Shown piece by piece: positions 45,067-59,805 of a stretch of DNA of 64,000 nucleotides. This DNA is from Marsupella aquatica. Its lineage: Eukaryota > Plantae > Marchantiophyta. The DNA lies in assembly GCA_973895155.1 (NCBI GenBank), contig OZ316893.1, positions 9,239,839-9,303,838 of the forward strand, written 5' to 3'. The translations under genes were made by a program, and so were the position numbers. The notes beneath the pieces are model-generated. The model was not told the DNA's origin. It saw only the letters and a program-made list of their open reading frames with translations, and searched no databases. Position 1 is the first letter of the stretch. Each line of letters starts with the position of its first letter.

Positions 45067-46441
45067 AGAATCAAGTCCCAAAATTCTGAGCATTTTGGGA
45101 CCTGGGTTTCCTTTGGAAACCCAGTCCTGACCATCCTTACAGTAAAAGTTTTTTTAAGTTTTTCTGAGCATTATAGGAACAGGGGTGCAGACTAGAACCC
45201 CAGTCTAGACTGTCCTTATAGTCTGGACATATGATATGGACAAAAGGTAACGATCATGACTTTCCTGGCGGGAGATTATGGATATAGCAGGGACCAGAGA
45301 TTATGGATATAACAGGGAACTCCAAAAATGGTTATACACCGGTACCCTTTCTTCCTTACCGAATTTAAGTTCTCAGGCTTGCCTTTCTTACTGTACGTAG
45401 GGTCAAAGCTGACAGGTACACAAACCAGGACACACACTTGTGACACCCGCGCAAACTTAACACCTACCGTCCTGCCAGAACACAAAGCAAGAGTCGCATT
45501 TCTTCGCACCCCTTAGTTTGCAGTTCACAAATAAACTATTCGCGCAGTCCGGAGGTCATAACTGGGCGTTAGCTTTAAAGAGTCCAAAAAAGAGAGAAAT
45601 TCGTGCTACGTAGATAATAGGATTTTACTGTCTTGCTTGCTGATGACGCCTCTAAACAGCACCCATTCCTCAGGGCCAGTAAAACACACACCAGAAAAAT
45701 GAGAAAGATTTTATTAGAGATTCGATTGCAAGGACATGCTCGCCTCACAACCGAAAGTTGGGAATACAGTACCAATTAAGTTAGATTCACTAGTCAAGAT
45801 GGGGGAAGGGCGTGCAAGTATTTAATTGGACGGAAGCTTATAAGTCCAGTGCTGGGCCCACACTTCACGACCGCATCACATCGTTTGGCACATCTTCCGG
45901 CGGATCTCCACGTGGCTACTGTCGGTGGCAGAAACACTTCTCGACAATTTACAGGACACAACAAATCAAATCAACGACAGCCCTGGCTCTGGCAAGTCAT
46001 CAGTAAAGTGGTACATGTGCTGCACCCAAAACACTAAGATCATATTCGAAAAGAAAACTGCAAATGGACCTCGGTCCTGGGAAGATGCAAAATCATCCCG
46101 AGTACCTGATTCAATGTGTTCTAATATAAGGGCTTGTGGTAGAGCCACAACAGTCATTTCCATTCAAAGGGGAAACTTCCATGGTCTGCACGGTTTGAAC
46201 TGATAACTAGTTGCAGTCATTTGTAACTAGGTTACATGCTCTATCCATGTCCTATTCTGCGGCTACCTATTCTGCGGCTACCTACGTCAGGCACCTGCGT
46301 TATTATGACTGCAGGAAAAAATGAATTTAACAAAAAGTCAAAAATATATACGGACTCTGGCAGGAAGCAGGGTCCCAAGATCTTCTAGGGCTACAATGTA
46401 CAAGTGCAGACACTTCTGTACATAGCATGGTTACACTGGTC

Positions 46442-49400
46442 TCATTCTTCCAGATCCATGCCTTGTACAAACTCAAACTCCTCCTCGCTGGACAAGTCCT
46501 CAATTGACGATTCTTCCGTCCCCATAGTACTACAAAAACGCGTGTTACTGTCATTGCCATATATTGCAGAGTAGGAAAGACCAAAGATCCTCACCTTTAC
46601 TTTAAATTCCTTTTCATGGCATACTTGAAACCCAAAGGTGATTCGCCTTCACTGCGTAAATGAATCAAAAAACTCCACAGGAACCCAAAGAGAGAACGAG
46701 GACGACAATAGGTGTTCATCGGGGTTTACCTCAAGCATCGACAGCTGAAACATAAGATGCGCTTAAGTTTTTTGTTGTAGAAAAAGTAATTGAAAGACCA
46801 TCTGCGAGAATTTTGTCGAAGATTTACCCCAAGAATTAGGGTACATATGCGGTATCACGGAATATTTTAGGCCCTGCATCTTGACTGACTCCACCAAACA
46901 AATGATTCTAAGCAGTCAAGACTACAAGCTCCGTACAGACTATCAGAGTTAGTAAGACCAAAATGCGAAAGAAAACATACATGCTTCCACGGTCAGCAAA
47001 TGGATCTCCTTCAAAGTCGGGAACACAGCTGTAAACATCACAATCACCGAGCTCCATCACCTGCGATTTTTCGACCCATTAATCAAAATTCTCGAGAATA
47101 ATTAGGACGACATCATAAGTATTTTGAAACTCAAAATTATTTAATAATTCATATAGGTCAGTTCATTGAGCTTACTTCGTCAATTGCTGTCCAGATGCTG
47201 TCCATAAAAGGAGTCTCTTCTCCGGCCTGTGCTTCCCAGATCTGTGCCTCAAAAGTAATAGAAACAAGAATTTATAGATCTGTAACTAAGAGATGAACAT
47301 GAATGCTGAATCCAGGGAGCTCACGCATCAGATGTCCTTACGATCAAAATCTCTGGCTATCCAGAGATTCCGCAGAAACAACGATATTCAGCAGTCAACG
47401 CGATTAACGTATTCAAATACTCCAAATCAACTCTGTTAAGGCCTCTTCTACCTTAGTAGCTTCAAGCATGAATTGCTCTATCTTCTGCTTTGAAGCACAG
47501 GGTCCCTGTTCTTTAGAGAAATGATGAGCCCGCAACATGCTGTTACCCAATGACAAATTACAGAGCAGAACAAGAGAATCGGGTCAGACTACGATGGTAC
47601 TCAAACACTGCTATGAAACGACATGCCCTGCACATTTCCCTCGCTGGACGCTGTCAATAACTACCTCTGGGTTCTGAGGTACATTATTTCTACCATGGAT
47701 ATTTGAGTAACATCCACATTGGCCAGAAAAGTTGTCTCAAGGCTAATACAGTATGTTAAACTGCAAACATGGCAACACTGGGAACTCCACCTCCAAAAGT
47801 TCAGAGAACGACTCGGAAGAGTATACCAACATCAATAGCGACAAAGAGGGTTAAACAAACTACTGTCCTGCAGGATTTTCTAGCGGTTGACAAGATACAC
47901 AACTAATCTCCAAGGCATTGAATATACTATCGTGACTTCCTCCCCTGCTGCCAATGACCTTCACAGAAAAATTCGACTCTACTGTTCAAAGTAATAAAGT
48001 TCAAATACCTAGTTGCAAACTTGATAAACTATCAACAAGTTCTATAAATTAATTCACCAGTACTTTCCTCTACCATGCCGACCCTGTCCCTTGCCCCTTT
48101 GGAAACCTTGAAAACTTTAAAATACTCATTGGTTCATTCAAGTCAGTGCTAATGCCAGACATATTGAACTACTACCGACTCTTGTAAGATCATTCTCCAT
48201 TCCTTGCACTTCGGGAATCTTACTGTGACACCGCCTCTCTAAAAGACCCCGGGCACTTCAAAATATACACCTTACTCCCATCCACACGCAGTGCTAATGT
48301 GCGGACGATTGTCACTGTCAACCCTCCGACGCACTTTCTCAGTTAATCTCTCTGCGCACACTTCGTTATCCTGAAAAATAGGAAATGGAGAGATTTGAAC
48401 TCTCAGCCCCGCTAGGAGCAACGGTTTTAGGCCGCCTGTCAACCCTTGACAACACTTCCTATTCCCCTCGCTAAAACTTCGGGTTGCCGAGCGACTCCTG
48501 AGAGCCGACAAGGCATTACCCGCTTCTCTCAAGACATTGTGGCGAGATTTATAATCTCAGCTCCCACTGGAGCAACATGTGGACGCAGCTAACCAATTGT
48601 GGCCGCTTACGCCCTAGTTTCATACGTCCATCAAGTGTGTGCAATATGCTATACAACGTAGCACTGCGAAACCTACACGAGCCAGAACTGACAATAGAGT
48701 TTAGAGCCACATGCAATCAAAACCAAAAACCACCCGATGCCTACAGCGAAATCAAATAAATGCGTACCTGAAGTCGTAATCCGGATACATGTGATTTAAG
48801 GTGAGAATGAGGTAGATCAGCGTCTTACGACTGCACGTGTACAAAAACGTATATGAGAATCGCGGTTCTAATGCTTTTCAACATTTACCTGTCTGAAAGT
48901 TTCACAAAATCAACTCCGCAGCACTGTGCTGCATACAAGTGGATAATTTGCAGTCAGAGCATCCAGAACTGACATCCAGAAGCGAATATCGCAGCTTACC
49001 AAAAAATCGAAATTCATCTTCTAAACTTTTCTTCTGAATCATAAGAGAAGATATACCTGGCCGAACTAGAAAGAGGTCCAACTGGAGATGTTGACAAATT
49101 TGGAAGAAAGCAAAGCGAGTCGAGAACCTGTAATTACGGCCATATCAGAGTTTAATAATTTAAGGGATCGAAACATATCTACCACATTGATAGTGCTAAC
49201 AGATGGTATCGCCCCGCGACAACTAAGATGACGGACATAGTAACGAAGAAGCTTTGTTACCGACTTAAATCCAGACCATATCAAGGGCAATGCCAGATTA
49301 TAATCATCCGGTGAATCAAGTCCCAAGAAAGGCTCACCTCTTGCTCTAAACTCCGTGATAGCTTCTTGTCCATACCTGCAAGCTTGCCTGAATCAATAAA

Positions 49401-50300
49401 CCAACCAAAGAAAGTCGTAAGAAAGCGCGAGACAAAAACACTCCCTCCAAAGGTCGAGGCAGAACGTTAGAAGCCTCGAGGGATCAGGTGGAATAGAGCA
49501 CACGGTTCACTCCCCCTGAAGCTACCGTTGATATGAAAAACAAACAGTGACCAGAAGCGTTTCAGTGACCACAAGAGGTTAATTGAGGAATCCTTGTCCA
49601 GAAACTGCAACGTACAACCTGTGCACCAAGCTCTGAAGACTGAGAAACCGTAAACCTGCTGAAAAACTGCTACGTGGTCCACGACAAAGGTCCAAACCAG
49701 TGTAACACTATAAGATCAAGAAAAAGACATAGGCATGACTGCTGCAGAGGAAGGAGGACTATACCACAAGACTCAATCATTAGCTGCCTCAGAAGTCATT
49801 AAACGCAAAGGAGTAGAAGACCATTTAGACCATTACATTACTCTGTAACGGAGTAGTTATCGATCTACACGAACGCAAGACCTAGAAGTTGAGACTCACA
49901 AGAATAGGCCTCCAGAGCTCCTTGTATGAGGCAGTCGCCGAGGTTGACATTGGACAGGAAAGCGTTTATTCTGCGCGAGAAAAGCGACAGAAACCGAATT
50001 ACAAGACAACGTCCTCATGATATAAGGTAGACATGATGAAAGACTCTTTCACAAGAACTCTCAAACAATTGGCACATACGCACATGTTGAATAAATGCAG
50101 CAGCATGTTCAATTTCCAAATAATTGAACATTGGGGACCGACTTGGACAGAATTGGGACCAACAACCTCCAAACTTGCATTAATAACAGAATCGAAGTAC
50201 CAAAGCCATGCAGGACAACGAGGAACGAAAGGAAACGAAAGGACAAACAAATGTAGGAAGAAGCCTACCTTGCAAGCGGGGTGTATTCGAGGTACTTCAT
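46442..50300 (-). CDS. MAF1: Repressor of RNA polymerase III transcription MAF1
   Basis: Missed by the ORF track because the exons are small: 50300-50269 ([11 protein letters not shown]), 49970-49900 ([23 protein letters not shown]), 49387-49338 ([17 protein letters not shown]), 49127-49057, 48830-48768 ([22 protein letters not shown]), 47539-47452, 47241-47176, 47060-46981 (DCDVYS), 46801-46730 ([17 protein letters not shown]), 46529-46442 (acidic tail [24 protein letters not shown]). All introns GT-AG and in phase; PDYDFS and [11 protein letters not shown] are Maf1 signature motifs. Confidence 0.96.
48276..48370 (-). other. Candidate poison (PTC-containing) cassette exon in MAF1 intron 5
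   Basis: Acceptor ttcctatttttcag|G and donor GGA|gtaagg. 95 nt (not 3n); in-frame TAA at 48345-48343 when joined to the PDYDFS exon. Confidence 0.6.
48381..48459 (-). ncRNA. Intronic tRNA-like element (class II, long variable arm), probably a tRNA mimic rather than a decoding tRNA
   Basis: GGAAGTG TT GTCAA-GGG-TTGAC A GGCGG-CCTAAAA-CCGTT GCTCC-TAGC-GGGGC T GAGAG-TTCAAAT-CTCTC CATTTCC. The 7-bp acceptor, D arm, 5-bp anticodon stem with 7-nt loop, 5-bp variable arm and canonical T arm all pair. C at position 33 and the tiny D loop are non-canonical. Confidence 0.85.
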
Positions 50301-50948
50301 AGCACTTACGGTTCATGTATCCTTCGTGAAAACCGAGAAAACTGGACGTTCCCGTCCCAGAAACCGACGGAACCCTCGCTCGGACCACCGCACTCCACCA
50401 AAGCATCCAAATCGAACTCGATCGGTCTCAAACCAAATGATCACCCTCGACTCGCGGATTCAAAATCAGAGCGCCATCATCCTTCCAAACACAATCGAGA
50501 GCCAAACGCCAGAGGCAAAACGCTCGAGGCAAAACCACGCTCCTCGTCAGCAACTGCGAGAACAGCGAATCGAGACGGAGGGCAAAGACGAAACGCAATT
50601 GAACTAAACGTAAGTTCGCACGTTTCGACGTCTTCACTTCTTTCTTCTTTCTGCTTCTGCATCTGCATCTGCTTACCGCGGTACCAGACCACGGCTGCCG
50701 ACCACGTGAAAGAGGAGGACGAAGAAGGGCAAAAGGCTAGCGCGGGCCAAAAGGAAGACGGGCCGCAGAGGCAGAGCACAGCAAAGAAAGACCCACTACA
50801 ACTGCAAAGGAATCGTGGGGTGAGGGTAGGGACCTACAGTAATAATAATAGGGCCGTGGCCAGGAATGGTTCGAGCTCACCCGGTCACTGATGGCATGAG
50901 CGGACACCGTCGAGAGATGGATACGGTCAAATACAAAGCCAGTAACTG

Positions 50949-51203
50949 GCTTAGGTCAGGGTGGCCAGGGGAGTATGGTAGCCTAGAACTGGGAGGCCTA
51001 CCCAGGTTTGTGAACCCCTATCCTGAATTTTTGTTGGATGGTCATGTAAGATTCTAAGGCATTAGAGCTTAGGTCAGGGTGGCCAGGGGAGTATGGTAGC
51101 CTAGAACTGGGAGGCCTACCCAGGTTTGTGAACCCCTAGCCTGAATTTTTGTTGGGTAGTCTTTTCTGTTGGGTAGTCATGTAAGATTCTAAGGCATTAG
51201 AGC
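50949..51203. repeat. Tandem duplication, 118-bp period, upstream of MAF1
   Basis: gcttaggtcagggtggccagggg...gtaagattctaaggcattaga at 50949 and 51067; the second copy carries a further short internal duplication. Confidence 0.93.
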
Positions 51204-58839: not shown

Positions 58840-59805
58840 ATGGGTGGAGCTTTGGCAATGGCAGCATCTCTGCTGATGTTCCAATGGTGGACATTCTGTG
58901 GATCAGTTCTGCGTTCCCTGCTGCTCGTTACCCGTGTTTGGATGGGTGGTAAGAAGCAGCAAGAAGATACCGGAAACGGCAGCATGGAAGAAGAGGATAG
59001 CTCTGCGATTTATGAAGGTGTGGTTTGGCATGAGAGAAGGCATCCTATTCACCACCAGTTCGAGTATAAAGTCAGATATGCTTTTGTGAATTTGGACAAA
59101 GTGCCTTCATGGTTTACTGCTTCTGCTCATCACCATATGACAGCAGGGCTGGTACGGTCCATTGCAGGGACCTCGGGCTCTGTATATTTGCTATGCATGC
59201 CTCAAAGCGTTGGCTATGAGCAAAACCCCATTAGTGTATACTACTGTTACGATGGGGATGCAGGAGGGGCTCATGGATCTTCAACTCTGTCTAAAACAAT
59301 TGCGGAGGTGACGAATACTCCTTGGGGGGAGAGGGTTACTTTTACGTTTGATTCAGAAGAGGATGGCGTTCCCAAACCTCTCCACGTCAGCCCGTTCATG
59401 GATATGGAAGGAACTTGGCGAATTTACGCACCTGCGCCGGGGGAAAAACTTTATTTGACGGTTGGGGTCGAGCATCCTGATTATGGCAATTATTTTTTAG
59501 CCACATTGAGAGCATGGAAAGTGGACCCAGGTGAAAGTCCCGAATGGTTTTTGTGGCTGATGCCGCACAAGGTCGCTGTTTGGATCTATTGGCAGGCTCT
59601 GGTTCTCATGTGGAAGGGCGTAGCATTTGTACAGCATCCTAAATACATCGATGGAGACCTTTACAGAGCCCGTGCACAAGACCGAGATGAAAAATTGAAG
59701 GTCAAAATGGTAGCAGGGGAAGAAGCTGCTAGTAATGGGACTGCAAGAGTTTTGTGCCCTCGGCTATGCAAATGGCACAATGCTGGTGGATACCCATGGT
59801 TGTAG
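58840..59805 (+). CDS. DUF1365 family protein, single coding exon
   Basis: IYEGVVWHERRHPIHHQFEY, GYEQNPISVYYCY, AEVTNTPWGER, KPLHVSPFMDM and IYWQAL are DUF1365 motifs. First ATG at 58840, after a candidate acceptor ttcacag. Confidence 0.9.
   Translation: MGGALAMAASLLMFQWWTFCGSVLRSLLLVTRVWMGGKKQQEDTGNGSMEEEDSSAIYEGVVWHERRHPIHHQFEYKVRYAFVNLDKVPSWFTASAHHHMTAGLVRSIAGTSGSVYLLCMPQSVGYEQNPISVYYCYDGDAGGAHGSSTLSKTIAEVTNTPWGERVTFTFDSEEDGVPKPLHVSPFMDMEGTWRIYAPAPGEKLYLTVGVEHPDYGNYFLATLRAWKVDPGESPEWFLWLMPHKVAVWIYWQALVLMWKGVAFVQHPKYIDGDLYRARAQDRDEKLKVKMVAGEEAASNGTARVLCPRLCKWHNAGGYPWL

Follow-up and report, generated by a model that had tools for sequence, protein, structure and literature searches.

MAF1 represses Pol III (PMC12218528), and in flowering plants its gene carries a two-part element, in which, according to Sack et al. 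2025, a hairpin with a conserved AG (the 'MAF1 motif') precedes CPIR-1, the tRNA-like element of Akkuratov et al. 2014 (PMC12218528). In the sections of that study drawn on here, the MAF1 motif/CPIR-1 is explicitly not called cis-regulatory, no function is assigned to it and no NMD-linked site was found near the motif in Arabidopsis (PMC12218528). The element is also cited, without being described, in PMC4987954. A literature search, whose coverage left out most subscription journals, returned nothing that ties CPIR-1 to splicing or to PRORP. CPIR-1 had reportedly been seen already in a moss in the 2014 work of Akkuratov and colleagues.

As far as the consulted parts of the respective papers go, two further systems are relevant. 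In TFIIIA, binding of L5 to the 5S mimic P5SM controls a suicide exon (PMC3378873), and PRORP1 is described as needing the elbow and the D arm, and not the anticodon arm (PMC4836652). The window, as the whole 64-kb stretch of liverwort DNA analysed is called here, carries a liverwort member of the described plant family (MAF1 motif plus CPIR-1): nucleotides 48521-48380 of MAF1 intron 5 are the land-plant hairpin and CPIR-1 element.

Results

MAF1 and its fifth intron

The 226-aa MAF1 product of the window (Table 1) is 96% identical to MAF1 of Calypogeia fissa, 77% to that of Riccia and 72% to those of mosses; with the best match of a neighbouring gene, also in C. fissa, this places the DNA in a leafy liverwort. 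Three of five single-exon peptides of the gene matched Pfam PF09174 (Maf1), and spliced alignment with the Calypogeia protein reproduced the 10-exon chain. As stated in a preliminary description of this DNA, intron 5 (1,228 nt) is more than twice as long as any other MAF1 intron, the other eight coding introns measuring 115-512 nt. Its surplus length sits downstream of the conserved element: the distance from element to exon 6 is 841 nt in the window, compared with 114-222 nt in the 24 of 26 related loci that have a complete exon 6. These ~840 nt found no match within the 64-kb window or the 26 loci.

Table 1. Features of the MAF1 locus, in window coordinates.
Feature	Position	Strand	Basis
MAF1 coding span, 10 exons, 226 aa	46442..50300	-	exon-chain translation and spliced alignment to Calypogeia MAF1
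MAF1 coding exon 5, with a phase-2 end	48768..48830	-	Pfam PF09174, 32.7 bits; spliced alignment to Calypogeia MAF1
MAF1 intron 5, 1228 nt; same intron position carries the element in 26 of 26 related loci	47540..48767	-	
MAF1 coding exon 6	47452..47539	-	exon-chain translation, spliced alignment
Hairpin orthologous to the published 'MAF1 motif', base GGGU-AA-UGCC ... GGCA-ACCC	48481..48521	-	fold z −2.24; published alignment compared by eye
Candidate alternative acceptors in the hairpin loop, CAG/48497 and GAG/48494; predicted counterpart of the Sphagnum acceptor	48494..48500	-	score 2.2
tRNA-like element, CPIR-1 orthologue	48380..48459	-	ARAGORN tRNA-???; Rfam RF00005, 38.2 bits, E 1.4e-5; fold z −2.79
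Weak candidate donor in the D loop, AGG/GTTGAC, exon would end at 48444	48439..48446	-	score 0.6
Pyrimidine tract of the 95-nt segment's acceptor; predicted 3′ strand of the extended acceptor helix	48373..48389	-	mean unpaired probability 0.02-0.05
95-nt segment with in-frame stop, probably a pseudo-exon	48276..48370	-	splice-matrix scores, shuffles, 26-locus comparison

The hairpin and the tRNA-like element

The tRNA-like element lies on the sense strand of MAF1 and comprises a 7-bp acceptor stem, a D arm with GG, a variable anticodon loop, a long variable arm and a T arm with UUCAAAU; the cloverleaf is its minimum-energy fold. Its 3′ end is 9 nt before the acceptor of the 95-nt segment discussed below. 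The bulged hairpin GGGUAAUG...CAACCC ends 21 nt upstream of it.

Gene and layout, a hairpin and then a tRNA-like element, are those of the MAF1 motif and CPIR-1, and by eye the window's tRNA-like sequence is nearly base-for-base with the consensus in the consulted part of PMC12218528. However, the motif alignment there lists flowering plants only, whereas the window is from a liverwort. Furthermore, the outer stem of the window's hairpin is weaker, and the conserved UCAG, which provides the AG in angiosperms, reads UCGG; in its stead, the terminal loop offers an AG at a distance of 6 nt downstream. This shift makes the hairpin of the window a variant and leaves the CPIR-1 assignment unaffected. 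With a type II cytosolic tRNA (Leu/Ser; Rfam RF00005), the element shares the cloverleaf, the long variable arm, the D-loop GG and the T-loop UUCRA, yet it is without a fixed anticodon or a conserved terminator and has a short D loop and an extended acceptor helix.

A second haplotype (run X4) shows 37 differences from the window across intron 5, none of them in the tRNA-like element and one in the hairpin. For the 142 nt that hold both parts, this single difference compares with 4.7 expected (P about 0.05). Three further small hairpins were seen upstream of the MAF1-motif hairpin (48614-48540, minus strand; z −1.89 for 48625-48530) and were not evident in the other loci.

Conservation at a single intron position

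Related loci were collected by scanning metagenome contigs for the T-arm motif, which yielded 26 loci with 13 distinct element sequences; the T arm being the search pattern, its invariance among them is by construction. All 26 matches lie in MAF1 intron 5, with exon 5 upstream in 25, a complete exon 6 downstream in 24 and at least one flanking exon in each. The loci are Sphagnum-type (L013 is 100% identical to S. magellanicum over 122 aa), of another moss type (L008), of an unplaced lineage (L003 and L018) or, in several cases, angiosperm-type.

Pairing was kept in 96.6% of cells among 11 representative sequences, as against 36-49% in slid controls, and five pairs had changed on both sides, three in the anticodon stem and two in the hairpin, where 97% of cells were paired; relatedness among the representatives inflates the shuffle test. 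The acceptor stem, the D-loop GG and the T loop are near-invariant in the loci and, by eye, in the published rows. The anticodon loop is free in both length and sequence, so the element is no decoding tRNA. Element, fold and single intron position are conserved from liverwort and mosses to flowering plants.

In the Populus-type loci, as in L001, intron 5 also contains a second, degenerate copy in tandem, made up of the hairpin together with the 5′ half of the tRNA-like element. One gene model from Populus (P0269) places an acceptor just before this duplicate, with a stop after eight codons.

Stop-bearing splice products in relatives

Four Sphagnum-type proteins from JGI, P0152, P0270, P0271 and P0272 (2, 10, 2 and 1 contigs, respectively; 15 in total), end in YPDYDF-SVNSKVA followed by a stop. 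The tail SVNSKVA is the exact phase-2 product of exon 5 joined to the AG at hairpin offset 10, where the stop comes after seven codons. As the N-terminal part of these proteins reads across exons between which L013 and L023 have introns, we infer that they come from spliced RNA. Since these spliced products use the hairpin AG and stop seven codons later, unproductive splicing at intron 5 is real in a moss, at another site than the 95-nt exon. The preliminary description had proposed regulated unproductive splicing of MAF1 through that exon: in Sphagnum-type products the unproductive splicing was found, whereas the specific exon, with chance-level sites and no conservation, was not supported. 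Normal exon 5-6 junctions were present on at least four JGI contigs of the same collection (15 of the 17 members of the cluster being listed; numbers of contigs do not measure expression). The stop-bearing Sphagnum splice product that uses the hairpin is new here, the consulted sections of PMC12218528 containing no NMD link for the motif.

One protein among the same matches listed ends in R and a stop, as intron retention would give. Spliced-looking MAF1 proteins that end in YPDYDF-R and a stop, as retention of intron 5 would give, were also seen in Logan/JGI (P0257, P0263, P0273, P0313 and P0315; Arabidopsis-type, Sphagnum-type and others).

Among 191 MAF1 proteins that include the end of exon 5, four carry the Sphagnum tail and two an Ipomoea insert. 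The latter, Ipomoea batatas gene models P0188 and P0274, contain 22 additional residues that correspond to a 66-nt cassette from the hairpin AG to the D-loop GU of a published row (translated by hand); both look like ab initio predictions and carry little weight, and P0188 has another odd insertion. A search of 1.8 billion cluster representatives for the angiosperm junction peptide returned one match, an unspliced read-through. In the consulted part of the PMC12218528 alignment, every angiosperm row retains an AG within the hairpin, which is annotated as an alternative acceptor in Hevea only.

Candidate splice sites around the element in the window

Splice sites were scored with a weight matrix built on the MAF1 introns of the window and seven loci (45 donors, 48 acceptors), leaving out the rows from L012 and L023 (near-duplicates), one doubtful L006 intron, the last L009 intron and two L016 introns common to L009. 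The score of CAG/48497 in the hairpin loop (Table 1) compares with 1.6 for the Sphagnum-used site and 0.8-3.7 in angiosperm-type loci. The first hairpin AG (48498) is lost in the second haplotype, in which the weak GAG remains. Together with the D-loop donor, the position of which is also implied by Ipomoea P0188/P0274, the hairpin CAG bounds a 54-nt in-frame cassette. From CAG/48497, reading through to exon 6 leads to a stop; closing at the D-loop donor, or at the donor of the 95-nt segment (222 nt), gives an in-frame insertion. Two of the three window isoforms from the hairpin acceptor would thus stay in frame without a stop. The tail predicted from this acceptor was found in none of the 191 MAF1 proteins, of which only seven are liverwort-type.

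Neither site is fixed across the family. The offset of the hairpin acceptor drifts from 10 in Sphagnum to 16 in angiosperms, 22/25 in the window and 29/31 in L003/L018, and the hairpin of moss-type L008 contains no AG at all. At the D-loop donor, many species have something other than GU.

Two other candidates were considered and rejected. A GT at the hairpin base (48519; score 4.9) as a conserved alternative donor is paired, reads GC in some published rows and could not be told apart from intron retention with any of the proteins compared. The D arm also holds an acceptor (48435; score 8.0), but mosses and several of the published rows lack it.

Discussion

A putative pre-tRNA mimic in MAF1 pre-mRNA

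The reading favoured here, by analogy with P5SM and with a probability of roughly 0.45, is that 48521-48380 imitates a pre-tRNA within the MAF1 pre-mRNA and so directs it towards unproductive splicing, the 95-nt exon beside it probably being a chance pseudo-exon. The conserved elbow and acceptor arm, the needs of PRORP1, the role of MAF1 and the P5SM precedent together suggest a pre-tRNA mimic that is read by a tRNA-processing protein. Under such a scheme, a tRNA-processing protein of the nucleus, with protein-only RNase P or tRNase Z as the likeliest candidates, would recognise elbow and acceptor stem and occupy the mimic whenever competing pre-tRNAs are scarce. Once bound, it would promote use of the hairpin acceptor (in the window liverwort, CAG/48497 or GAG/48494 is predicted) or retention of intron 5, so that MAF1 would fall and Pol III be de-repressed. 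Abundant pre-tRNA, conversely, would titrate the protein away and restore the exon 5-6 junction, and the resulting increase in repressor would close a negative feedback on tRNA synthesis.

Equally tentatively, and on the same analogy, this circuit may be the tRNA counterpart of P5SM in TFIIIA. As P5SM is presented in the consulted parts of the literature, the two have in common that the intron of a gene regulating Pol III harbours a structural mimic of one of the polymerase's own products, as is the case in the window. The stop-bearing alternative exon of P5SM may have a counterpart: a stop-bearing isoform overlapping the element is present in Sphagnum-type products, and none was seen for the window liverwort among the MAF1 proteins compared. 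They differ in that P5SM mimics 5S rRNA and binds L5, with exon skipping raising an activator, whereas the MAF1 element is tRNA-like and its gene encodes a repressor; in addition, the splice sites of the MAF1 element are less conserved. A somewhat more doubtful extension is that a tRNA mimic has been kept since before liverworts, mosses and flowering plants split, sensing free pre-tRNA-processing enzyme and switching MAF1 between productive and stop-bearing splicing.

If this is true, a tRNA-sensing loop in MAF1 would pair with the 5S-sensing P5SM loop of TFIIIA, and CPIR-1 would gain a function; if the feedback operates, plants would adjust a Pol III repressor to their pre-tRNA load, sensed through RNA. 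The Sphagnum stop-bearing product and the liverwort member make the function of CPIR-1 and the MAF1 motif, both strongly conserved intron elements of plants, a testable matter, since the junctions are defined, partner proteins can be named and suitable hosts are tractable.

Alternative readings

Conceivably, though we consider it unlikely, the element is cut and not merely bound: protein-only RNase P and tRNase Z would sever the MAF1 pre-mRNA or free a small tRNA-like RNA (predicted cuts between 48460 and 48459 for RNase P and near 48380 for tRNase Z), splicing to the hairpin AG would be a by-product, and the same feedback would be possible without a poison exon. The 7+5 bp acceptor/T geometry and the elbow are indeed kept while anticodon loop and splice sites drift. 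Moreover, in the sections of the sources consulted, PRORPs are described as cleaving tRNA-like t-elements that are without an anticodon arm (PMC4836652), and Sack et al. leave a trans role open (PMC12218528). However, the Sphagnum-type contigs with the hairpin junction reach lengths of 1746-4159 nt and the collection they belong to also contains 130-aa products that begin in exon 6, which suggests uncut transcripts running past the element. In addition, pairing of leader and trailer extends the acceptor helix and might hinder 3′ cleavage.

It is decidedly unlikely, in our estimate, that the 95-nt segment (or a 100-nt version of it) is a real lineage-specific poison exon whose acceptor is hidden when the tRNA-like element folds and exposed otherwise. 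The elements of such an exon are in place as first described: the 95 nt are bounded by ...TTTTTCAG and GTAAGG, and, when joined to phase-2 exon 5, they read RITKCAQRD followed by a stop that ends at nt 28, with five coding exons downstream. A stop upstream of several exon junctions is what the segment shares with NMD-coupled poison cassette exons, such as the 45ABC and PTB2 motifs in the consulted part of PMC12218528; it is without the conservation and transcript support that define them. Both of its splice sites had been called strong, which is borne out for the acceptor (8.0, 65th percentile of true sites) but not for the donor GGA/GTAAGG (2.3, 2nd percentile); the 100-nt version would use a better donor, found 5 nt further downstream (48271). 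The top AG/GT pair in intron 5 scores 17.8, compared with 10.3 for that of the segment, and 74% of 500 dinucleotide shuffles of the intron hold a pair at least as strong at both ends. A premature stop is likewise created by 1,504 of the 1,592 (94%) AG..GT segments of 40-250 nt in the intron. The splice matrix is small and gene-biased, so these scores show only that nothing about the segment stands out.

No AG occupies the position of the segment's acceptor in any of the 26 related loci, and in 19 of them, including all seven non-angiosperm-type loci, the 25 nt next to the element contain none. L009 and L016 do have a fair AG, 21 nt past the element, which favours a real exon. Similarity to the segment was absent from all 10 representative loci compared. 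The second haplotype differs from it at seven places (five substitutions and two indels), against ~2.5 expected from the rest of the intron, but leaves both splice dinucleotides unchanged. Its peptide tail occurs in none of the 191 MAF1 proteins, a weak test as only seven of these are liverwort-type, and the segment has no significant fold (z 0.07). The location of the acceptor's pyrimidine tract within the predicted acceptor helix would make a plausible switch; however, the tract is already explained by pairing with its predicted partner upstream, a purine run at ~48467-48453 that is also present in Sphagnum. The segment lies outside what is conserved in intron 5, namely the hairpin and the tRNA-like element, both of which the preliminary description overlooked; it is probably a chance pseudo-exon, and by itself it would matter little.

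Very improbable is a role at the level of DNA, in which an intragenic TFIIIC/Pol III site, or a small Pol III gene, would be occupied and thereby disturb the transcription of MAF1 by Pol II. At 48400 the T arm does match the B-box consensus, and in the window the element is followed by T5, yet such B-box strings occur nine times in the 64 kb and only 3 of the 26 loci have a run of T4 or more within 10 nt of the element. The compensatory pairs of the hairpin, like the spliced Sphagnum products, argue for a function within the Pol II transcript. That the element is just a tRNA gene that happens to be intronic, or a tRNA pseudogene in decay, and does nothing for MAF1, is largely excluded by conservation: the Rfam tRNA score of the window is above the gathering cut-off, but only one of seven related loci reaches that cut-off, ARAGORN assigned no anticodon, the element has neither a fixed 7-nt anticodon loop with a conserved anticodon nor a conserved Pol III terminator, as a functional tRNA would, and, from liverwort to angiosperms, it always comes at the same intron position and behind the same hairpin.

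Other features of the window

A 57-nt segment of MAF1 intron 9 (46651-46595, minus strand) has splice sites whose scores, 8.1 and 8.7, exceed the respective medians of true sites, and contains an in-frame stop (…KRNLK-stop). By splice sites alone, it is a better candidate for an alternative exon than the 95-nt segment. It is absent from Calypogeia protein models, and by eye nothing similar was seen in L001, L016 or L018.

Contig depth was uneven along the gene. The region 46300-48900 looks single-copy, unlike 48900-50400 (MAF1 exons 1-4), where depth was several-fold higher, with many variants of 90-95% identity, in all four runs. The depth of 48900-50400 suggests repeated or captured MAF1 5′ fragments elsewhere in the genome. 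The contigs of these four runs, which come from two studies and include none listed as RNA, showed no splice joints; a joint with non-canonical ends that skips 47006-48815 was present in one contig, and this says nothing on expression. Upstream of MAF1, a direct repeat of ~120-137 nt with 85% identity is located at 50949-51203. Finally, an intronless-looking DUF1365 (PF07103) reading frame at 58843-59805 (plus strand) encodes a product that is 81% identical to a Calypogeia fissa protein and 57% to that of Marchantia.
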